Shown: piece by piece, positions 16,901 through 27,101 of the stretch
Layout: each line of letters opens with the position of its first letter
Numbering within the stretch: the first letter of the stretch is position 1
From: Escherichia coli
GTDB lineage: Bacteria; Pseudomonadota; Gammaproteobacteria; Enterobacterales; Enterobacteriaceae
DNA length: 64,000 bases
Direction: 5' to 3' (one strand)
NCBI RefSeq assembly: GCF_045037415.1
Contig: NZ_CP173438.1
Translations under genes and position numbers: made by a program
The notes under the pieces: model-generated
What the model was told of the DNA's origin: nothing
Databases searched by the model: none
The model's input: the letters and a program-made list of their open reading frames with translations, nothing else

Positions 16901-17185
<285 letters not shown>

Positions 17186-17208
17186 TTGCCTGTTGTTGTC
17201 AGCTTTGT

Positions 17209-17237
17209 AAAAAAACCCGCTCTGGCGGGTTTTTTTA
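17209..17237 (+). terminator. rpsT intrinsic terminator
   Basis: aaaaaaacccgc-tctg-gcgggttttttt: GC stem with T7 run, flanked by an A-run. Confidence 0.8.
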
Positions 17238-17573
17238 TGCCTGCGGAAGTTACCGTTAATCGATTATATATTTTCTCCATGAATACATCATAAATATAAT
17301 TGATGCTTTTTCATTGTGAAAGATAAAATATTTCATTTGGCTGTAAAACGTGAACTGTATAACAAATAGCAGGAAAACTGAATAAAAAACTAATTAACGC
17401 AACCTTAAAACGAAAAATTATAATTGTCGCTCTTCCCCACTTTAATTACTCTCATTGCCACAACGTTGCTTTACATCATTAATAAATACGCATCAAGGAT
17501 AGTTAGCATGTATTTGCTTAGAAAGTAAAAGTCGTTTTTCTGAGCCAGGCATTCTTGTTCTGGAGAGAATATA

Positions 17574-18947
17574 ATGAGTTCCGTACTTGAAACTGATAAA
17601 TCATCCGCATCCGATTCACTGCCTTTAATACAACGGATCAGCTATGGTTCGCTGGATGTTGCAGGTAATCTGCTCTACTGTTTTGGCTCCACCTACATTC
17701 TCTATTTCTACACTGACGTGGCGGGCATAAGCCTTGCCGTAGCTGGCATCATCCTGCTACTGGCGCGTATTGTAGACGGTATCGATGCCCCGGTATGGGG
17801 GATTATTATTGATAAAACGCATTCCCGCTACGGTAAATGTCGGCCGTGGTTTTTATGGTTGCCATTACCTTTTGCTGTATTTAGCGCACTCTCATTCTGG
17901 TCGCCAGATATCAGTATGACAGGTAAAACCATATATTCAGCAATATCGTACATGTTAGCCAGCATTCTTTTTACCGGTTTAAACACGCCGCTAAGCGCAA
18001 TATTACCTTTGATGACGTTATCACCAAAAGAACGGTTGGTATTAAACTCTTACCGGATGACCGGCGGGCAAATTGGCGTGTTATTAATGAATGCGACGGC
18101 GCTACCGTTAGTGGCTTTTCTTGGAAACGGTAATGATAAGGCAGGATTTATTTATACTGCTATCGTCTTTTCCGTAATCTCCTGTGCGCTAACGCTATTT
18201 GCCTTCAAAAATATTCGAGAACTGGATACCGACAAAATACAGCAGGAACCACGTCTGCCGATGAAAAAGAGCTTTTCGGCAATGAAAGGCAACTGGCCGT
18301 GGATCCTGATGGTGCTGGCAAATCTCATCTTCTGGATTGCCTTACAGCAGCGCAACACAACCATTGTTTACTATTTAACCTACAACCTGGATCGCAAAGA
18401 TTTAGTTCCCTTGATCAACAGCCTCGCCACCATTCAGATTTTGTTTATCATCGCAATTCCGTTTTTCAGCCGTTACCTCTCCAAAACCTGGATTTGGATC
18501 ACCGGCCTGCTGGTCGCCATGTTCGGCGGAGGACTGATGTGGCTGGCTGGAGACAATATTCCTTTGATGATTGCCGCCTGGATGCTGGCGAATATTGGCA
18601 GTGGCATTGCCTGCTCTATGCCCTTCGCCATGCTTGGTTTCGCGGTTGATTTTGGTCGCTGGAAAACAGGGATTAAAGCTACCGGCATTCTAATCGCCTT
18701 CGGCAGTACCTTCTGCATCAAGATGGGCAGTGGTATCGGCACCGCCTTCGCCGCCTGGATTATGAACAGCTTTGGCTATATTCCCAACCAGCCACAAACT
18801 GCCGCCGGTCTGGACGGTATTAGCTGGGCGTTTATCTGGGTGCCAGCCGTGCTCTTTGCACTCGCCGCCATTCCACTGCTCTTCTTTCGTAAATATGAAG
18901 CGATGGAAGAGTGCATCCAACACGATTTGCAAGTTCATAACCCTTAA
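17574..18947 (+). CDS. Glycoside-pentoside-hexuronide (GPH) family cation symporter, 457 aa
   Basis: Multi-helix membrane protein with the MelB/GPH signature region IVDGIDAPVWGIIIDKTHSRYGKCRPW; absent from K-12 at this position. Confidence 0.8.
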   Translation: MSSVLETDKSSASDSLPLIQRISYGSLDVAGNLLYCFGSTYILYFYTDVAGISLAVAGIILLLARIVDGIDAPVWGIIIDKTHSRYGKCRPWFLWLPLPFAVFSALSFWSPDISMTGKTIYSAISYMLASILFTGLNTPLSAILPLMTLSPKERLVLNSYRMTGGQIGVLLMNATALPLVAFLGNGNDKAGFIYTAIVFSVISCALTLFAFKNIRELDTDKIQQEPRLPMKKSFSAMKGNWPWILMVLANLIFWIALQQRNTTIVYYLTYNLDRKDLVPLINSLATIQILFIIAIPFFSRYLSKTWIWITGLLVAMFGGGLMWLAGDNIPLMIAAWMLANIGSGIACSMPFAMLGFAVDFGRWKTGIKATGILIAFGSTFCIKMGSGIGTAFAAWIMNSFGYIPNQPQTAAGLDGISWAFIWVPAVLFALAAIPLLFFRKYEAMEECIQHDLQVHNP

Positions 18948-18974
18948 ACATGTCACAAGCTCCTGGAGGAAATT

Positions 18975-21014
18975 ATGTCGTTTATTAAGCAAGATCCCCA
19001 TCGTCTGGTCTGGCAACAAGACGATCGTTATCTCTGGATTGAAGCATGGGGTGAGAACAGTTTACGTGTGCGTAGCGGTCGCCATCTGCCGATGATGCGC
19101 AATGAAAACTGGGCATTAACAGAAGAAAAAGGTGATGCTGTCGCCTATATCACATATGAAGAAAAGCAGGCAACACTACAAAACGGCAAAATCACCGCCA
19201 TTGTTAATCTGCAGGGTCAGATCTCTTTCTGGCGTAATGCAGAAAAATGCCTGCTGCAGGAGTTCTGGCGTCAGCGCGGCGAAATTGGCGAAGATGAGTC
19301 GGCCCACGGTCAGTATGTCAGCGCCCTGAATTTACAGGCCCGCGAGTTCAAACCGATTCCCGGCGGGAAATACACAATCAAGGCGCGGTTCGAAGCCAAC
19401 GATGGCGAAAAGTTGTTTGGCATGGGGCAGTACCAGCAGCCAAATCTGGATTTAAAAGGCTGTATGCTAGAGCTGGCGCAGCGTAATTCTCAGGCATCGG
19501 TTCCCTTCCTGCTTTCTAATCGCGGCTATGGTTTTCTGTGGAATAACCCAGCGGTGGGTCGCGTCACTTTCGCGCAAAATGGCACGGAATGGGTGGCAGA
19601 AGTTAGCGAACAGTTGGACTACTGGGTTACCGCAGGGGATACTCCCGCAGAAATCAGCGCCGCCTATGCACGTGTTACCGGTACGCCGCCAATGATGCCC
19701 GATTACGCCATGGGATTCTGGCAGTGCAAGTTGCGCTACCGTAATCAGCAAGAGTTACTAGAAGTTGCACGTGGCTACAAGCAGCGTAATTTGCCTATTT
19801 CGGTGATTGTCATCGATTTCTTCCATTGGCCGAATCAGGGTGACTGGATGTTCGATCTGCGCGACTGGCCCGATCCCGATGCCATGATTGCCGAACTAAA
19901 AGAGATGGGCATTGAACTGATGGTCTCCTTCTGGCCCACGGTTGATAACCGTACCGAGAGTTATCGGGAGATGAAAGAAAACGGCTGGCTGGTCCACACC
20001 GAGCGTGGTTTGCCTATCAATATGGATTTCCTTGGCAACACCACGTTCTTTGATGCTACCCATCCTGGCGCACGGGAATATGTCTGGAACAAAGCCAAAC
20101 GCAATTATTACGATAAAGGCGTGAAACTGTTCTGGCTGGATGAAGCCGAGCCAGAGTTCGGTGTTTACGATTATGACAACTATCGTTACTACGCAGGGCC
20201 TGTGCTGGAAGTCGGTAATATCTATCCGCGTATGTACGCCAAAACGTTCTTCGATGGTATGACCGCGGCTGGTGAAAAGCAGGTGATTAACCTGCTGCGC
20301 TGTGCCTGGGCTGGCAGTCAGAAATATGGCGCTCTGGTGTGGTCAGGCGATATTCACTCCTCTTTCCGTTCTTTGCGTAATCAGTTTGCCGCTGGCTTGA
20401 ACATGGGAATTGCCGGGATCCCGTGGTGGACAACCGATATTGGTGGTTTCCACGGCGGTAATATTCACGATCCGAAATTCCATGAACTGTTAATTCGCTG
20501 GTTCCAGTGGGGGGTATTCAGCCCAGTAATGCGTTTACATGGCAACCGCGACCCGCAGGTTTTGCCTGAACAACCCTATCGTGATGGCATAGCACAATGT
20601 CCGACTGGCGCGCCGAATGAAGTCTGGAGCTATGGTGAAGAAACCGGTGAAATTCTCACTTCCTGCCTGCAGTTGCGTGAAAAACTGAAATCTTATATCA
20701 GTAAAATTATGGCTGAGACGCACGAGAAGAACAGCCCGATAATGCGCACGATGTTCTTTGAATTTCCTGACCAGGCAGAAAGCTGGAATATTTATGATCA
20801 GTACTGCTTTGGCCCAGACCTTCTCGTTGCCCCTGTAATGCACGAAGGTACACGTTCACGTGATGTCTGGTTGCCTGCTGGAGAGACATGGATCGATTTT
20901 TATACCCATGAACACTACGCGGGTGGGCAAACGCTTCATCATTGCGCACCGCTGCACCAGATACCGGTATTCATTCGCGAGAAAGGGAAATATCGCCAGA
21001 TATTTCCCGTTTAA
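18975..21014 (+). CDS. Glycoside hydrolase family 31 alpha-glycosidase, 679 aa
   Basis: GH31-like catalytic regions KLFWLDEAEPEF (nucleophile Asp context) and ALVWSGDIHSSF (acid/base context); 27 bp downstream of the GPH symporter, suggesting one operon. Confidence 0.8.
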   Translation: MSFIKQDPHRLVWQQDDRYLWIEAWGENSLRVRSGRHLPMMRNENWALTEEKGDAVAYITYEEKQATLQNGKITAIVNLQGQISFWRNAEKCLLQEFWRQRGEIGEDESAHGQYVSALNLQAREFKPIPGGKYTIKARFEANDGEKLFGMGQYQQPNLDLKGCMLELAQRNSQASVPFLLSNRGYGFLWNNPAVGRVTFAQNGTEWVAEVSEQLDYWVTAGDTPAEISAAYARVTGTPPMMPDYAMGFWQCKLRYRNQQELLEVARGYKQRNLPISVIVIDFFHWPNQGDWMFDLRDWPDPDAMIAELKEMGIELMVSFWPTVDNRTESYREMKENGWLVHTERGLPINMDFLGNTTFFDATHPGAREYVWNKAKRNYYDKGVKLFWLDEAEPEFGVYDYDNYRYYAGPVLEVGNIYPRMYAKTFFDGMTAAGEKQVINLLRCAWAGSQKYGALVWSGDIHSSFRSLRNQFAAGLNMGIAGIPWWTTDIGGFHGGNIHDPKFHELLIRWFQWGVFSPVMRLHGNRDPQVLPEQPYRDGIAQCPTGAPNEVWSYGEETGEILTSCLQLREKLKSYISKIMAETHEKNSPIMRTMFFEFPDQAESWNIYDQYCFGPDLLVAPVMHEGTRSRDVWLPAGETWIDFYTHEHYAGGQTLHHCAPLHQIPVFIREKGKYRQIFPV

Positions 21015-21071
21015 AGGACATCGTTTGTTCATTAGCACGCCCCGTATGTAGCGGGGCGTGAGTTTTAATAG

Positions 21072-21977
21072 CTATCGTGAGGCGGGAGAAAACAACGAAG
21101 AATAATCCGTATTGCAGATTCGCTGTACCGCCGGGTGCTGAATCATCCGCTCAGCAAAAATAGCATGGTACTCTTCCATCACATTCTCGACGCGACCAAT
21201 TTCTACGACAGTTTTATCGGCATAAAAGTCATATGCATAAAGCGTTGGAGCAACGAAGATTGCATTGTGCATCGCACCAAAAGCTTTCATCAACGCGGCA
21301 TCATCAAACTCGCCAAGGATTTCTACGTTTAATCCCTGGGAGTTAAACCAGTTAAGCAATTTGCGCCCTAACATTGAACGTCGCCCAGGAATCAAAAGCC
21401 GCCGTTCTTCCAGACAAGCCGGGAACGGTTTTTCCGGTGGTGGATTTGTACACCAGAAACTCACGCCACATTCGCCAATTCTCACGGAGAACAGGCCTTC
21501 CTGCTGCGTAGAATCTATCGGACAGTCGGAAATGATCATATCCAGTTTATGCTGACTTAATTGCTCCAGCAGCATTTCGTGGGTGGATTCGAAGCAGCGA
21601 AGATGAATCGGCTCGCCTTCTACCACTGCGGCGTTAAGTACGCTACTGACCAGACGTTTGGAAAGTGCATCTGCCACACCAACATCAAACAATAAGTTGG
21701 ACTCTTTGCGATAGTTGACGATATCCAGCATTTCCTGGCTTAAGGTGAACATTTTATCGGCATAGCGATAGACCAGTTCCCCCAGTTCGCTGGGTTCCAG
21801 ACCACGTCCTTTACGCTTAAATAGTTTCCCTTGCAGGCGCTCTTCCAGCGCCCGGATCTGCCCGGTAATGGTTTGTGGTGTTAAATAAAGCGCCTCCGCT
21901 GCGCCAACCACAGAACCTTCTTTGTAGACATGCCAGAAGTAATACAAGTGGTTGTAATTGATATGAGACATGCTCAT
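21072..21977 (-). CDS. nhaR: LysR-type transcriptional activator of nhaA, 301 aa
   Basis: Translation from [41 protein letters not shown]... (LysR HTH); the ORF-track start at 21995 is 6 codons too long. Confidence 0.93.
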
Positions 21978-22036
21978 TTCTCTCCCTGATAACAATGAAA
22001 AGGGAGCCGTTTATGGCTCCCCAGTACATCGTCCTG

Positions 22037-23203
22037 TCAAACTGATGGACGTAAACGAACGCGTAACCAGCTATATCCAATTACCGCCGAAGAAATTGAA
22101 CCGACAAGGATACCTAATTTTGCCCAGTTAATCAGTTCTGGATCTACGCTACCAAATGCCAGGCTGGCAATAAAGATAGACATAGTAAAACCGATACCGC
22201 ACAGGATACCAACCGCCATAATTTGCTGGTAAGTCGTTCCCTCTGGCAGATGTGCCAGTTTCAAACGCAGCGCCAACCAGCAGAACAGACTAATACCCAG
22301 TGGCTTGCCAATCAGCAAACCAGCGATGATCCCTAATGGCAGAATGGAGGTCAAACCTTCCAGCGTGACACCTTGCAGTGAAACGCCAGCATTAGCAAAT
22401 GCAAACAGCGGCAAAATCAGATACGCCACCCATGGATGCAAAACATGCTCCAGACGTTTAGCCGGAGAGCGCCCATGCTTCTCTTTTAACGGAATAAAGA
22501 AGCCGACAATGACGCCAGCCAGCGTTGCATGGACACCTGATTTCAACACCGCTGTCCACAGCACCACGCCAACCAGAATATAAACGCCCGTGCGGCGTAC
22601 ACCACACAGATTCAATACCGCGAGTACCGCAATTGCTACAGCCGCGACGCCAAGAGAGGCCATCGATAAGTCATTAGTGTAGAACAATGCGATGATAATG
22701 ATGGCCCCAAGATCGTCGATAATAGCCAGAGCCATCAAAAAGATCTTCAGCGCTAACGGAACACGACTTCCCAACAGCGCCAACACACCAAGTGCAAAGG
22801 CAATGTCAGTCGCCGCCGGGATTGCCCAGCCTTCGCGAGTGATAGGATCGGCATAGTTAAAAGCCAGATAGAGCAATGCCGGGACAATCATCCCGCCGAT
22901 TGCGGCAATAACAGGAAATGCCGCCTGGCGCAGACTGGCCAGCGAACCTTGCATCAGCTCGCGTTTAACTTCCAGACCAACCAACAGGAAAAATACCGCC
23001 ATCAGAGCGTCATTGATCCATAGCAGCATGTTCTTGTTGATCTCAAGTGTCCCAACCCGGAGCTGAACCGGCGTCTCAAGAAAGTCGTGATACCATCCAC
23101 TGGTTGCACCGCTGTTGGCCATAATCATCGCTAATACAGCGGCAATAATGAGAATAATGCCTCCCGAGGCATCACTGCTAAAGAATCGATGCAGATGTTT
23201 CAC
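22037..23203 (-). CDS. nhaA: Na+/H+ antiporter NhaA, 388 aa
   Basis: [42 protein letters not shown]... full length. Confidence 0.96.
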
Positions 23204-23437: not shown

Positions 23438-24697
23438 TTAAATTGTTCCATGCTCTAGTTTTTTATTCCACAGATGTTTGAGGATATCTAATGTAGAAAC
23501 GACATTCGCAGGAGACATTCGGTTCAATGATATAAGGAAAGGATGGTTCTCCACAAAGTGGATAAAACGCGTCGCACTGTTCAATGTTGCATGCCGCATC
23601 TCGCGGACTTTCTTACTGCCAGTGAGATTGCATACAGCCATTGAATAATTGCGGTTAGAAAATGCACGCCAGACATTATTTCGTACCCCACCACTAAGGA
23701 ATAATCGCGGCGGAAAATCAATGGTGGCGGGTGCCACACCGCGCTCTTTGACAAAGGAAATATGGCAGCGACCTTGATGAATATGCTGCAAATTAGCCAT
23801 CAGGCAGCCGCCCAATATAAAGCATTCGTGATCAAGGTAATGCTGAACGTTGTTGGAATGCTCATCGGTCAGTATTCTGACCAGTTCAAAATGACGATAT
23901 GCCGGAAGAACCGGTTTTACCAACATTCCCGGATCGTTTTGATGTAAAACTGCCGGGCCGTAATCAATATCAAACAAGGTATCCCGCCGCATAGTAAGTA
24001 ACTCTTTGCGCTGGACATGATGTGCCAGCGTCCCTGGAGACATACGCTCTTCATAGTTCGATGTGTATTGATAATGTTGCTCTACGGCAGATGGGGAGTA
24101 ATTGGTTGAGATGGCAACCACCCTGCCGCTTTGTTCTTCTGCGGTAACAAGAGCATAAAGAGAGTTATTGCTACCATTATACTTGACGCGAAAAGCGCGG
24201 GTACTCAGGGTAATATCAGAAGCTGGGAAACACTGTCGACTTTCTTTATAGTTTGCTTCACGCGCTAATTTTAACAGTTCACGGCTAAGTCCAGTGCTGT
24301 TAAGAAGTAATGACTTTCTGATATCCGCAAGTGCCTCCCCTTGCTCAATCATCAATGCTAACTGGGCTCCTCGTGGTGTGGTAATTACATGTTCCAGAGT
24401 GATAAATGTTTTCTCACAATGATGGCAATACATTCTTCTCTGGCCTTGTGCAGAATATCCATATTTTTTGAGGGACGTGCCTCCGCAAGTTGAACATTGG
24501 CAAATCAAACCTCTCCAGGAGTGATTCACAATATTACGATAAATATTAAGCGACTGTTCAGATATCACTGGAAACAAGTAACCACATTCACGGCATAAAA
24601 TATTTTTACCCTGTGCGACATAATCCTGGCTATTCAGCAACCCCAGGTTTTTACATCCTGGTGTTTTGCAACAATCAACATTTACGTTGGTAAACAT
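23438..24697 (-). CDS. Cysteine-rich hypothetical protein (tandem CxxC zinc-ribbon-like N-terminus, then a helix-turn-helix-like segment and a ~300 aa domain of unknown function)
   Basis: Cys pairs at C12/C17, C37/C40, C68-C70-C73, C93/C96; likely start is the ATG at 24697 with an agggag SD (the ORF track uses the GTG at 24703); no radical-SAM CX3CX2C motif; AT-rich gene. Confidence 0.6.
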   Translation of the reverse strand: MFTNVNVDCCKTPGCKNLGLLNSQDYVAQGKNILCRECGYLFPVISEQSLNIYRNIVNHSWRGLICQCSTCGGTSLKKYGYSAQGQRRMYCHHCEKTFITLEHVITTPRGAQLALMIEQGEALADIRKSLLLNSTGLSRELLKLAREANYKESRQCFPASDITLSTRAFRVKYNGSNNSLYALVTAEEQSGRVVAISTNYSPSAVEQHYQYTSNYEERMSPGTLAHHVQRKELLTMRRDTLFDIDYGPAVLHQNDPGMLVKPVLPAYRHFELVRILTDEHSNNVQHYLDHECFILGGCLMANLQHIHQGRCHISFVKERGVAPATIDFPPRLFLSGGVRNNVWRAFSNRNYSMAVCNLTGSKKVREMRHATLNSATRFIHFVENHPFLISLNRMSPANVVSTLDILKHLWNKKLEHGTI

Positions 24698-24825
24698 ATC
24701 CACTCCCTGCGAATAGCCGTATCTTGATATTGTTCAACGCGAAAAGAACCTGATTCAATGCGTAGCACTGAATCAGGCGGGCATAGCCCTAAATGGCATA
24801 CATTACATTTATTATGATTATCAGG

Positions 24826-26319
24826 TTAGCCCCAGGTCACCGCTTCTGGTTTATCACCTCTGGCTTTCATTAGAGAATCATTATCAATATCAGTTTTATA
24901 TTTTAAAAACTTACCATACATCTGTTTTTCAATATCTGGTTTTTTACCGATCAGATTAAGTGTTTCATAACGATCAGATTTCAGATTGTAGAGATATTTC
25001 GGTTTATTATTGCGATCGATAATCATCTTCCAGTCACCATCACGGATCGCCCATTCATCGGTTGGATCATCCTGGAATGGCATATCAATCCCGAAAATTA
25101 ATGGCTTTTCGCGTTTCAATGCTTTTTGCTCAAGAACAGGAACCAGCGATTCACCATCGAAAGTACGGTCTGTAGGTAATTTGAAGTTCATCATTTTCGC
25201 TAAAGTAGGCATCCAGTCCAGACCATAAACGGGTGTATCTGAAACCATTCCCTGTGGTAGATGTTTACCATATTTAATAATGGCTGGAACACGAATTCCG
25301 CCTTCCCAAAGGTTATCCTTGCGACCGCGTAATCCATCCGTTTCCCCTGCCAAATTCAGCTCATACACTTTGCGCGCTTCACGCGTTACCGGACCGTTAT
25401 CACTGGTAAAAATAACGATTGTGTTATCTTCTTCACCCACAGCTTTGATTTTATCCAGCACTTTTCCAACCTGTGCATCCAGATAGCTGATATTGGCATA
25501 ATATTCCCCCACACCACGCCAGGGTTTGTCTGCCCAGTCGCCATAAAATAAATCAGGATGCTGCTTCTGATACGCGCTCATATATTGTGAGTACATATCG
25601 AGGTATTTTTTGGGCGAAGCCAGGGGGCTATGCACTTCGGTAAAAGCAACATAGAGGAAGAAAGGCTTGCTGTCCTTTTTGTTATCCAGCCAGTTGACGA
25701 CTTCCGAACTGACATACTCACCGCTCATTTTATCGGCTCGTGGAGTGGGTTGCCCGTTACGTAGCCAGCCTGTCGGGTAAACCATGCCATAACGCGGGCG
25801 TTCTTTAGCGTTATCCAGCGTGGCGTCGGTAACAAAGCCCGCCGTATTAACCAGTGAGTAATCAAAGCCCATATCTTGTGCTTGTGGCTGATCGGTGCGA
25901 TCGCTGCCTGCATTCAGATGCAGCTTACCCATCATTGCCGTGTCGTACCCTTGCGCTTTGAGTAGATTAGCAATCGTGAGTTCGTTACGCCCTAAGGCAA
26001 CATCTTTGCCTGAAGGAATCCATGAGCGAATTCCAGTACGAAATGGCATCCGGCCGGTTAATAGCCCTGCGCGTGAAGGTGAACTTAAAGGAGCGGGGGC
26101 ATAGTAGTCAGTAAATTTGACCCCTTCCTGGGCAAGCCTGTCGATATTAGGTGTTTTAACGATCTGATGACCATATGTTGCTAAATCGCCATAACCTAAA
26201 TCATCCGCCATAATAATGACTAAATTAGGTTGTTTAGCCTCTGCGGCTAAGGCAGGACTAAAAGCATTCCCTGTGCAAACTGCAAGGCCGATCAAACTGG
26301 CCATTAACGTTTTCTGCAT
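24826..26319 (-). CDS. Periplasmic Ser-type sulfatase (arylsulfatase family), 497 aa
   Basis: Signal peptide MQKTLMASLIGLAVCTGNAFSPALAAEA; sulfatase signature S79-S-P-S-R-AGLL-TGR where the formylglycine position is Ser (codon AGT on the minus strand, plus-strand 26083..26085); metal-binding DD at IIMADDLGYGD. Confidence 0.85.
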   Translation of the reverse strand: MQKTLMASLIGLAVCTGNAFSPALAAEAKQPNLVIIMADDLGYGDLATYGHQIVKTPNIDRLAQEGVKFTDYYAPAPLSSPSRAGLLTGRMPFRTGIRSWIPSGKDVALGRNELTIANLLKAQGYDTAMMGKLHLNAGSDRTDQPQAQDMGFDYSLVNTAGFVTDATLDNAKERPRYGMVYPTGWLRNGQPTPRADKMSGEYVSSEVVNWLDNKKDSKPFFLYVAFTEVHSPLASPKKYLDMYSQYMSAYQKQHPDLFYGDWADKPWRGVGEYYANISYLDAQVGKVLDKIKAVGEEDNTIVIFTSDNGPVTREARKVYELNLAGETDGLRGRKDNLWEGGIRVPAIIKYGKHLPQGMVSDTPVYGLDWMPTLAKMMNFKLPTDRTFDGESLVPVLEQKALKREKPLIFGIDMPFQDDPTDEWAIRDGDWKMIIDRNNKPKYLYNLKSDRYETLNLIGKKPDIEKQMYGKFLKYKTDIDNDSLMKARGDKPEAVTWG

Positions 26320-26339
26320 AATTATTCCCTGATAAAAAA

Positions 26340-27101
26340 TTAGAAATCATAACCAAGCATATAAATCATTTGATCGCCAAAGCCATCGTAGCCCAGCTTA
26401 TTATCGAAATAACGCCACGTCACACTGGCTTTCCAGCGAGGATAGAACTTCCAGGCAATAGTTAAACCGCCATTTAACCCGTTCCGGCCAAATTGCTGCT
26501 CCGTGTAAGCATCGTTCCTGTCCAGTTCTATTTCATTCCAGTTAGATAAAACAAATTTTTCGTCAAATAACGTAAATGGTAATACTGCTGTCCAGCCAAC
26601 AACATAACCATTCCAACCATTCGTTTGACCATATTTAGCTGATACGTAGTCACCAGATTGATTATGTAATCCAATATACGGTTTAAAAAAGCCCCACTCG
26701 CCGTTCCAGCCGAGGTAACCGAATCCATAAAACATGTCCAGATCGTCACCCCATGAGTTATCCCATTGGCCATAAATTTTGCCAAAGAATGTCATATCAG
26801 AGTCAAAGAGTCTGACATGCGTCATTACTGAAACCGTATGATTTCGCCCTGCTACAGCATGATTGAGTACATTACTTTCATAAAATGAGTAAAATTCTGC
26901 TTCTTTAAAATTTACCCCAAAATCCGCAGTCACTTTCCATACTTCACCACGGTGAGTGTTTACAAATCCACTATTCCAGTCTGCATAACCCGCATTTATT
27001 GAACCAAAGGTTCCTTTATATTCTAATGAAGAATATGCAGGAAAATGATAGATAGCTGTTATCAGGGTACACGCAATAAGAAGTCGTCTTTTGGCAGACA
27101 T
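26340..27101 (-). CDS. Outer-membrane beta-barrel channel, Tsx/OmpK-like, 253 aa
   Basis: Signal peptide; aromatic-rich alternating pattern; C-terminal ...MLGYDF ending in Phe; general resemblance to the Tsx nucleoside channel family (from memory, not a computed alignment). Confidence 0.6.
   Translation of the reverse strand: MSAKRRLLIACTLITAIYHFPAYSSLEYKGTFGSINAGYADWNSGFVNTHRGEVWKVTADFGVNFKEAEFYSFYESNVLNHAVAGRNHTVSVMTHVRLFDSDMTFFGKIYGQWDNSWGDDLDMFYGFGYLGWNGEWGFFKPYIGLHNQSGDYVSAKYGQTNGWNGYVVGWTAVLPFTLFDEKFVLSNWNEIELDRNDAYTEQQFGRNGLNGGLTIAWKFYPRWKASVTWRYFDNKLGYDGFGDQMIYMLGYDF

Follow-up and report, generated by a model that had tools for sequence, protein, structure and literature searches.

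A compact two-gene operon, a GPH symporter gene followed by a GH31 gene, lies between rpsT (positions 16922-17185, plus strand) and nhaR (21072-21971, minus strand, convergent with the GH31 gene) in the 64,000-nucleotide stretch of Escherichia coli DNA analyzed here (contig NZ_CP173438.1; "the window"). The first gene (17574-18947, plus strand) encodes a 457-aa GPH-family (MFS_2) glycoside:cation symporter, and the second (18975-21014, plus strand) a 679-aa protein that, from its homology to the soil-metagenome enzyme MeXyl31, is a predicted cytoplasmic GH31 alpha-xylosidase of the MeXyl31 type. The initial annotation had proposed just this pair at this place; its coordinates and protein lengths were exact, and profile matches bear out both families. 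A 27-nt gap separates the transporter stop from the GH31 start, which has the ribosome-binding site GGAGGA, while the symporter has GGAGAG 8 nt upstream of its ATG. The two genes are probably co-transcribed, and a cation is the presumed coupling ion. Between the GH31 and nhaR stops, a GC-rich hairpin followed by a T run (21036-21060, no strand assigned; 10-bp stem with 8 GC pairs) probably terminates the operon and may work bidirectionally. The intrinsic terminator of rpsT (17208-17237, no strand assigned) is a perfect 13-nt inverted repeat with A/T runs.

The putative leader and promoter region of the module runs from 17245 to 17573 on the plus strand and is AT-rich (31% GC). It contains weak sigma-70-like hexamers at 17300-17329 and a CRP-like site, CGTGAACTGTATAACA, at 17349 that agrees with the consensus at 8 of 10 positions. 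Shuffled sequence gives about as many promoter-like matches (7.2 expected) as the region itself (8), and we therefore put forward the promoter and the CRP site as tentative assignments. The promoter scan gave no convincing promoter, there is no regulator gene in the module, and an Rfam scan of leader plus operon gave no match at the gathering score. A full-length match to STnc370 on the minus strand (17204-17272) scored 33.5 bits against a threshold of 54 and overlaps the rpsT terminator; because it is absent at the syntenic Salmonella locus, we rejected it as terminator-driven noise.

The site exists in three states. Homology between K-12 and the window stops at 17244, just past the rpsT terminator, and restarts at 21082, which puts the left edge of the variable segment at about 17244/17245 and its right edge at about 21081/21082, some 10 bp within the 3' end of nhaR, in its last codons. 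In K-12 the rpsT-nhaR spacer is an unrelated sequence of about 426 bp that contains IS1A. The description of the module as standing "in place of" the K-12 IS1 is therefore right in that IS1A does sit between nhaR and rpsT but loose in its wording, IS1A being lodged inside that unrelated spacer. Searches of the K-12 spacer for remnants of the module (blastn-short, tblastx) matched the rpsT terminator alone, the other ~367 bp being unrelated. The third state is a 95-bp spacer in the B2 strain SCU-387, which is 100% identical to the window through the rpsT terminator, the last sequence that the window has in common with K-12 and SCU-387. No direct or inverted repeats that could be an insertion signature were found at the module boundaries, where the two terminators are the only clean inverted repeats, and no integrase or transposase gene and no tRNA target was found at the module.

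The module is kept in 639 of 5426 complete E. coli genomes (~12%), and the order rpsT-GPH-GH31-nhaR recurs in Salmonella, Citrobacter rodentium, Citrobacter sp. FP75, and C. youngae; other Escherichia have the module at the same site, and C. werkmanii shares the order on the rpsT side. The Salmonella enterica pair, which we take to be STM0041/STM0042, is orthologous, with the same lengths and amino acid identities of 88% (GPH) and 83% (GH31). Nucleotide identity to the Salmonella and Citrobacter loci is 75-81% for the module and 79-83% for the flanking nhaA, nhaR, and ribF. With site and order conserved across genera and divergence like that of the flanking core genes, the module is not an island or mobile element and not a recent insertion: it is ancestral at rpsT-nhaR in the lineage of Escherichia, Salmonella, and Citrobacter, and most E. 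coli, K-12 included, have since deleted it. E. coli carries two deeply diverged haplotypes, which may stem from introgression or from an ancient polymorphism. It is apparently core in Salmonella, whose module cluster holds 7386 sequences, and it is under purifying selection (dN/dS of 0.03-0.05 for the module as a whole and for the symporter, ~0.04 for the GH31 enzyme). Our literature search found no paper tying ST131 to this GH31 and no functional study of the Salmonella pair; its sole passing mention was of STM0041, listed as a hydrolase (PMC9241588).

The symporter belongs to the GPH:cation symporter family (TC 2.A.2), matching TIGR00792 over residues 21-453 with 359.9 bits (cut-off 231.35); a crude hydropathy scan gave several hydrophobic segments and no clean 12-helix count. 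It would import the glycoside substrate. Identity to YicJ, YagG, YihO, YihP, UidB, and MelB is 25-29% (YicJ 29%), and scores fall below the orthogroup cut-offs for YagG/YicJ (246 bits against 610), UidB (221 against 528), MelB (214 against 456), and YihO (176 against 836). Its relatives at ~50% identity, which we tried as a substrate clue, were uninformative, being paired with GH127, GH36, and GH141 enzymes. Because it is no ortholog of YicJ and its closer relatives have these varied partners, the symporter lends no independent support to a xyloside substrate.

GH31 models matched the 679-aa protein in the profile search, and the GH31 family domains (PF13802, PF01055, and PF21365) are present on the cluster of 100% identical proteins to which it belongs (P0001). 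Alignment places the nucleophile at D389 (in FWLDEAEP) and the acid/base at D459 (in WSGD), in register with D416/D482 of YicI and D405/D472 of YihQ and in agreement with the GH31 patterns W-x-D-x-[NSA]-E and W-x-G-D. R442, W456, F492, and H522 are also conserved, and the catalytic and conserved residues are invariant in 12 of 12 family members, from Proteobacteria to Firmicutes. The protein has no signal peptide or hydrophobic N-terminus.

Among solved structures, the enzyme stands closest by far to MeXyl31 (PDB 5ZN6), with 64% identity over 660 aa, a single gap, and 1025 bits across residues 9-671; the runner-up reaches 334 bits. The PDB holds 64 GH31 chains that match at E<=1e-10, and the five best structural matches are all alpha-xylosidases, well ahead of the glucosidases. 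One of the five, PDB 6dru, is presumably the Aspergillus niger alpha-xylosidase. This full-length identity, above that to every other GH31 structure, places the protein in the MeXyl31 type, and its activity as an alpha-xylosidase is predicted from the same 64% identity to a characterized enzyme. MeXyl31 itself is a GH31 alpha-xylosidase with two crystal structures, PDB 5ZN6 and 5ZN7 (Matsuzawa 2016 and Nakamichi 2022, both cited by PMC10792220), and the latter source assigns the MeXyl31 type to subfamily GH31_4. The two enzymes share a length class (679 and 687 aa), a three-domain architecture, the Asp pair, and a conserved -1 subsite, and, judging from length and alignment, both lack the PA14 insert of the xyloglucan-specific GH31_4 enzymes. 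They differ in host lineage, MeXyl31 being 96% identical to one surveyed protein (P0021) and 78% identical to a Pleomorphomonas protein, and in setting: P0021 has a LacI regulator and ABC and GH2 genes nearby, a context that gave no clear pointer to the substrate, where the E. coli module has a GPH symporter.

As the initial annotation pointed out, the transporter-then-GH31 organization is that of yicJ-yicI, and the enzyme is close in size to YihQ and shorter than YicI-type xylosidases. It has 679 aa to the 678 of YihQ and is 93 aa shorter than YicI. The GH31 enzyme and YicI are both cytoplasmic alpha-xylosidase-type proteins with shared catalytic residues, yet they are 25% identical, and the YicI-type model (PRK10658/NF007940) gave 242.3 bits against a cut-off of 606. 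The yihO/yihP-yihQ system likewise sets GPH proteins beside a GH31 enzyme with the same Asp pair; the match to YihQ, at 25% identity, is confined to the C-terminal 400 aa, and the YihQ-type model (PRK10426/NF007746) gave 191.4 bits against 553. No NCBIfam equivalog cut-off was reached, so annotation does not assign the exact specificity, which the initial annotation had also left open.

Could the enzyme act on sulfoquinovosides, as had been suggested? The sulfonate pocket of YihQ is formed by Arg301, Trp304, and Tyr508 in E. coli numbering (PMC8006165). The corresponding residues here are P286, G289, and F492, none of the three matching, and residues 281-291 include neither Arg nor Lys. The alignment that the initial annotation had proposed as a check thus showed the catalytic Asp pair present and the sulfonate triad absent, and the outcome it had named in advance as telling against its reading, a clear relationship to a characterized xylosidase with no triad, is the one obtained. 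No sulfoglycolysis genes (yihS/T/U/V-like) adjoin the module, whose neighbors are rpsT and nhaR. At the level of sequence, the residue test largely refutes the sulfoquinovose reading, and the proposed role on sulfoquinovosides or sulfated glycosides was not borne out.

The same annotation had speculatively linked the module to a sulfatase block on the far side of nhaAR. That block is indeed close, with orf421 ending 2.4 kb and the sulfatase gene lying 3.8 kb from the GH31 stop. One can picture a relay in which an outer-membrane channel and the periplasmic sulfatase act first on a sulfated glycoside, with GPH import and GH31 cleavage following, and it is topologically possible, the window's sulfatase (Ser-type, motif SSPSR) being periplasmic by its signal peptide and the GH31 enzyme cytoplasmic. 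The two blocks also travel together, both occurring in Salmonella and in 638 of the 639 module-bearing E. coli genomes, the remaining one being split by a record start. However, the module genomes are nested within a larger set of 1277 genomes with the sulfatase block, about half of which lack the module, and in clonal E. coli such nesting is what shared ancestry alone would yield. At this locus C. rodentium carries the module but lacks the sulfatase block, and the shorter flank examined in C. werkmanii showed neither a sulfatase nor orf421. Across 87 homologous loci surveyed, two from Lachnospiraceae (L009 and L033) do have a sulfatase inside or beside the GH31 operon, but any sulfatase within 10 kb is rare (6/87), and that in the Blautia producta operon, which we considered as a case of such an association and set aside, is 22% identical to the window's. 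Together with the absent triad and the distance from YihQ, these observations make the relay most improbable, and what remains of the link is proximity. The module is an ordinary sugar operon without sign of action on sulfonated or sulfated sugars.

We consider it likely that the module is an alpha-xyloside uptake and hydrolysis operon of the MeXyl31 type, ancestral in the lineage and lost from most E. coli. The GPH-family cation symporter would bring in a small alpha-xylosyl glycoside or disaccharide, the cytoplasmic retaining GH31 enzyme would cut off xylose with D389 as nucleophile and D459 as acid/base, and the products would enter central metabolism via the host xylose pathway. That transport and hydrolysis are coupled is suggested by the pairing of the two genes in an operon and by the enzyme being cytoplasmic. 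The block in ST131-type E. coli should accordingly be reannotated, not as a sulfoglycolysis or sulfatase-linked system but as a predicted alpha-xylosidase with its importer, derived from an ancestor shared with Salmonella and Citrobacter.

The label "alpha-xyloside" may reflect a mere surrogate activity of the characterized homolog. GH31 specificities shift through few substitutions and no equivalog model passed, so one might suppose that the true substrate is an alpha-glucoside, a nigerose-type sugar, an alpha-galactoside, or the like, cleavage of pNP-alpha-xyloside being a side activity. We think this very unlikely given the uniformly alpha-xylosidase identity of the closest structures and the motif D281-F282-F283, which is hydrophobic like D306-C307-F308 of YicI; the alpha-glucosidase motif at this position is D-I-D.

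Another reading is the use of isoprimeverose or xyloglucan oligosaccharides, which would make the module functionally redundant with yicJ-yicI and similar in role to xylP-xylQ of Lactobacillus. Many Firmicute loci combine a histidine kinase, an AraC-type regulator, an ABC transporter, and GH31, a two-component/ABC/GH31 layout like that of the Ruminiclostridium cellulolyticum xyloglucan cluster (PMC4780118). Some place the MeXyl31-type gene beside that of a putative GH74-like protein (recognized by eye; NCBIfam gave no confirmation), and some beside one for a GH3 enzyme or for an alpha-xylosidase of the true YicI type (1156 bits). According to PMC10792220, xyloglucan oligosaccharides are substrates of other alpha-xylosidases in GH31_4, but MeXyl31 and fungal AxyC, good on pNP-alpha-xyloside, are poor on isoprimeverose and on XXXG-type xyloglucan oligosaccharides. 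YicI, by comparison, prefers isoprimeverose-type substrates. The presence of MeXyl31-type and YicI-type enzymes in one operon, moreover, argues for different linkages and not for redundancy, and no beta-glucosidase or beta-galactosidase accompanies the enzyme in the enteric module. We regard the use of isoprimeverose or xyloglucan oligosaccharides as unlikely, though less so than another glycosidase specificity.

Transporter genes recur beside the enzyme across the 87 loci: those for an ABC binding protein and permeases in 43-46 of them, and one for a GPH protein in 15. The R. cellulolyticum Xyl31A cluster, which likewise has a cytoplasmic alpha-xylosidase acting on imported substrate, differs in its GH3 and GH42 partners and in its ABC importer for oligosaccharides of <=9 sugars (PMC4780118); a single enzyme with a secondary transporter, as in the E. 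coli module, implies a much smaller substrate. Identity of ~60% within the MeXyl31-like clade is kept from Enterobacterales to Firmicutes, often beside a YicI-type enzyme, and since its characterized members are poor on xyloglucan fragments, it is conceivable, if rather doubtful, that the clade targets an as-yet-unnamed alpha-xylosyl disaccharide or glycoside and that Salmonella and the pandemic ST131 lineage have kept the module for a private nutrient niche in the gut. For so widespread and strongly conserved a clade, E. coli and Salmonella would be convenient genetic systems in which to search for the substrate. More speculatively, candidates would include Xyl-alpha-1,3-Xyl/Glc derived from the O-glucose glycans of the host, or an alpha-xyloside of dietary or microbial origin.

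The GPH symporter and GH31 genes recognized between rpsT (16922-17185, + strand) and the nhaR and nhaA genes (21072-23203, − strand) proved to be a same-strand pair, consisting of a 457-aa transporter ORF (17574-18947, +) and a 679-aa GH31 ORF (18975-21014, +). A 27-nt gap carrying the ribosome-binding site GGAGGA separates the transporter stop from the GH31 start, and the transporter has its own site, GGAGAG, 8 nt 5' of the ATG. Upstream of the transporter gene is a 329-bp leader of 31% GC, itself preceded by the rpsT terminator (17208-17237). Between the convergent stops of GH31 and nhaR lies a strong hairpin followed by a T run (21036-21060). Gene calls and a repeat search found no regulator, mobility gene, or boundary repeats in the module; promoter-like hexamers did not exceed their frequency in shuffled controls, and the top CRP-like candidate matched 8 of 10 positions. 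In an Rfam scan, 17204-17272 (−) matched STnc370, a Salmonella sRNA family, over its full length but below threshold (33.5 bits; gathering score, 54). The match overlaps the rpsT terminator and is probably a terminator artifact, since the same scan gave no STnc370 match at the syntenic Salmonella locus.

The GH31 ORF matched only GH31 models and missed every equivalog cutoff, including those for alpha-xylosidase PRK10658 (242 bits; cutoff, 606), MalA (218 bits; cutoff, 800), and the YihQ-type PRK10426 (191 bits; cutoff, 553). A database cluster 100% identical to it carries Pfam domains PF13802, PF01055, and PF21365. Among solved structures, the best match was MeXyl31, a characterized soil-metagenome alpha-xylosidase (PDB 5ZN6), with 1025 bits over residues 9-671 (660 aa at 64% identity, one gap). 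Ranks 2 to 5 were likewise all alpha-xylosidases: 6dru (presumably the Aspergillus niger GH31 enzyme), 7kmp (whose entry bears that name), BoGH31A, and CjXyl31A. The E. coli enzymes YicI (162 bits) and YihQ (105 bits) each showed 25% identity.

The initial annotation had entertained a sulfoquinovosidase like YihQ and named the residues to compare. The window enzyme has both catalytic aspartates, D389 and D459, which align with D416/D482 of YicI and D405/D472 of YihQ. The sulfonate pocket of YihQ is formed by Arg301-Trp304-Tyr508 (PMC8006165), and the window enzyme has P286, G289, and F492 at these positions. Its residues 281-291 (DFFHWPNQGDW) include no basic residue, and therefore a slight alignment shift cannot recover the pocket Arg. 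Judged by these residues, the enzyme is not a sulfoquinovosidase; by homology, it is predicted to be a MeXyl31-type alpha-xylosidase. Its specificity, previously left open, is narrowed to the alpha-xylosidase class, short of a natural substrate. PMC10792220 places MeXyl31 in subfamily GH31_4 and reports that pNP-alpha-xyloside is hydrolyzed well by it and by fungal AxyC, and that isoprimeverose and xyloglucan oligosaccharides are not.

Around 87 surveyed loci encoding family members, the genes that recur are for transport and regulation. ABC binding proteins and permeases occur near 43 to 46 of these loci, a histidine kinase and AraC-type response regulators near about 30, and GPH symporters near 15. 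Several loci have two GH31 genes (L018, 7868-12043; L076, 6105-12055; L031, 9941-14994; L012, 8983-16467). The MeXyl31-type gene is accompanied by a second GH31 paralog in L076, by a 44%-identical paralog in Pleomorphomonas, and by a true YicI-type alpha-xylosidase in a Blautia MAG (1156 bits; cutoff, 606) and also in Sediminibacillus; at a few loci there is, in addition, a putative GH74-like protein, a GH3 enzyme, or a GH127-like protein. Such pairing suggests alpha-xylosyl substrates and a division of labor in which the MeXyl31 type acts on a linkage outside the reach of the YicI type.

The transporter scored 359.9 bits against the GPH:cation symporter model TIGR00792 (cutoff, 231) and fell under the cutoffs of the YagG, UidB, MelB, and YihO-type models. 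Because it is 25 to 29% identical to every K-12 GPH paralog (YicJ, YagG, YihO, YihP, UidB, and MelB), it forms a separate GPH subfamily. Relatives at ~50% identity adjoin GH127, GH36, and GH141 enzymes, and in Rahnella the GPH protein adjoining the GH31 homolog is 49% identical to YicJ, unlike the window transporter. The substrate is defined by the partner enzyme rather than by the transporter. The helix-II acidic motif reads D68-G-I-D71-A72, the MelB counterpart being D55-A-I-N58-D59. MelB position 59 is Asp in MelB, YicJ, YagG, UidB, YihO, and YihP, and the window motif is shifted (residues 65-73); it therefore gives no indication of the coupling ion.

The initial annotation had also, as a speculation, joined the module to the sulfatase block (23438-27101) beyond nhaAR, as serving sulfated or sulfonated glycosides together. 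The block comprises a 421-aa protein (orf421; 23438-24703, −), a periplasmic Ser-type sulfatase with a signal peptide and an SSPSR motif (24826-26319, −), and, at its end, an OmpK/Tsx-like outer-membrane protein that likewise has a signal peptide (26340-27101, −). The GH31 N terminus lacks a hydrophobic stretch, so the enzyme is read as cytoplasmic, and with the Ser-type sulfatase located in the periplasm, a relay between the two is topologically possible. The block occurs in 1277 of 5426 complete E. coli genomes and in all that bear the module, and a query spanning both was covered to at least 80% in 638; shared ancestry alone yields such nesting in a clonal species. Proximity is the sole argument for the link, and against it, about half of the block genomes lack the module, module-bearing Citrobacter rodentium has the block position occupied by a GH18 gene and phage lysis genes, and only 6 of the 87 family loci have a sulfatase-like gene within 10 kb, 3 of those 6 being the same enteric synteny. 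The shorter C. werkmanii flank showed no sulfatase and no orf421. The sulfonate/sulfate reading of the module is not supported.

A formylglycine-type sulfatase lies in or directly upstream of a MeXyl31-type GH31 operon at two Lachnospiraceae loci, Blautia producta (L009, 702-9995) and a MAG (L033, 8514-12013; 27% identical to the window sulfatase). The B. producta case was at first suggestive, yet its sulfatase is 22% identical to the window's, and such neighbors are rare (3 of ~70 nonenteric loci). The window sulfatase has no adjoining maturase gene; the syntenic Salmonella block has an extra radical-SAM/SPASM maturase and an arylsulfotransferase. The 421-aa protein, whose N-terminal Cys-rich zinc ribbon weakly matches an IS1/IS1595 zinc-binding domain (28 bits), also adjoins the sulfatase in Salmonella and Citrobacter, conserved at 65 to 67% amino acid identity, and its gene shows only 81% nucleotide identity from one E. 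coli haplotype to the other. The OmpK/Tsx-like gene is of low GC (40%), its sole NCBIfam match being below cutoff.

The module itself is carried by 639 of the 5426 genomes, always on the chromosome: 565, including ST131 strains such as EC958, have it at ≥99% identity, and in 74 the site holds a ~87% allele. The order rpsT-GPH-GH31-nhaR-nhaA recurs in Salmonella enterica (7386 sequences in the GH31 cluster, under the name "MULTISPECIES ... [Salmonella]"), C. rodentium, Citrobacter sp. FP75, and C. youngae. The rpsT-side order is found in a shorter C. werkmanii flank, with nhaA/nhaR present, and in Superficieibacter and one Enterobacter species; in Escherichia whittamii the protein is present by name only. 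Compared with Salmonella and Citrobacter, the module shows 75 to 81% nucleotide identity, and flanking ribF, nhaR, and nhaA show a similar 79 to 83%; dN/dS is 0.03 to 0.05 in both module genes, as in core genes. The parsimonious reading is that the module is ancestral, under purifying selection, and lost by most E. coli.

The rpsT-nhaR junction has at least three states: the 3.83-kb module (window 17245-21081), a 95-bp spacer in the B2 strain SCU-387 (L097, 3400-3494), and an unrelated ~426-bp spacer plus IS1A in K-12 (L003, 8622-9815). The statement that the module stands in place of the K-12 IS1 is thus only loosely right: IS1A is there, but within an unrelated spacer and as one of several states. 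The last 2 to 6 nhaR codons differ between states (NhaR being 299 or 301 aa), which places the breakpoints inside the nhaR 3' end. The junction is an indel hotspot.

Compared with E. coli M172-1 (L002, 6265-9717), the window module (17574-21014) is far more diverged than its flanks, with dS values of 1.09 (GPH gene) and 0.55 (GH31) versus 0.08 (ribF), 0.14 (nhaR), and 0.32 (nhaA); the GPH value nears the E. coli-Salmonella distance (1.41). Such a contrast is suggestive either of an allele introgressed from some other lineage of Escherichia or of a polymorphism of great age. Overall, the module appears to be a real but ordinary catabolic operon whose enzyme kind is known and whose genes already bear generic RefSeq names ("MFS transporter" and "glycoside hydrolase family 31 protein") in EC958 and hundreds more genomes. 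The remaining interest lies in the natural substrate of the highly conserved MeXyl31-type clade and in the unusually deep split of the two E. coli haplotypes. For the query spanning module and sulfatase block, identity is in the 90 to 95% band in most E. coli genomes, and window nhaA and nhaR (21072-23203) are 92 to 96% identical to K-12 in nucleotides, unusually low for E. coli core genes; they may have hitchhiked with the flanking accessory blocks.
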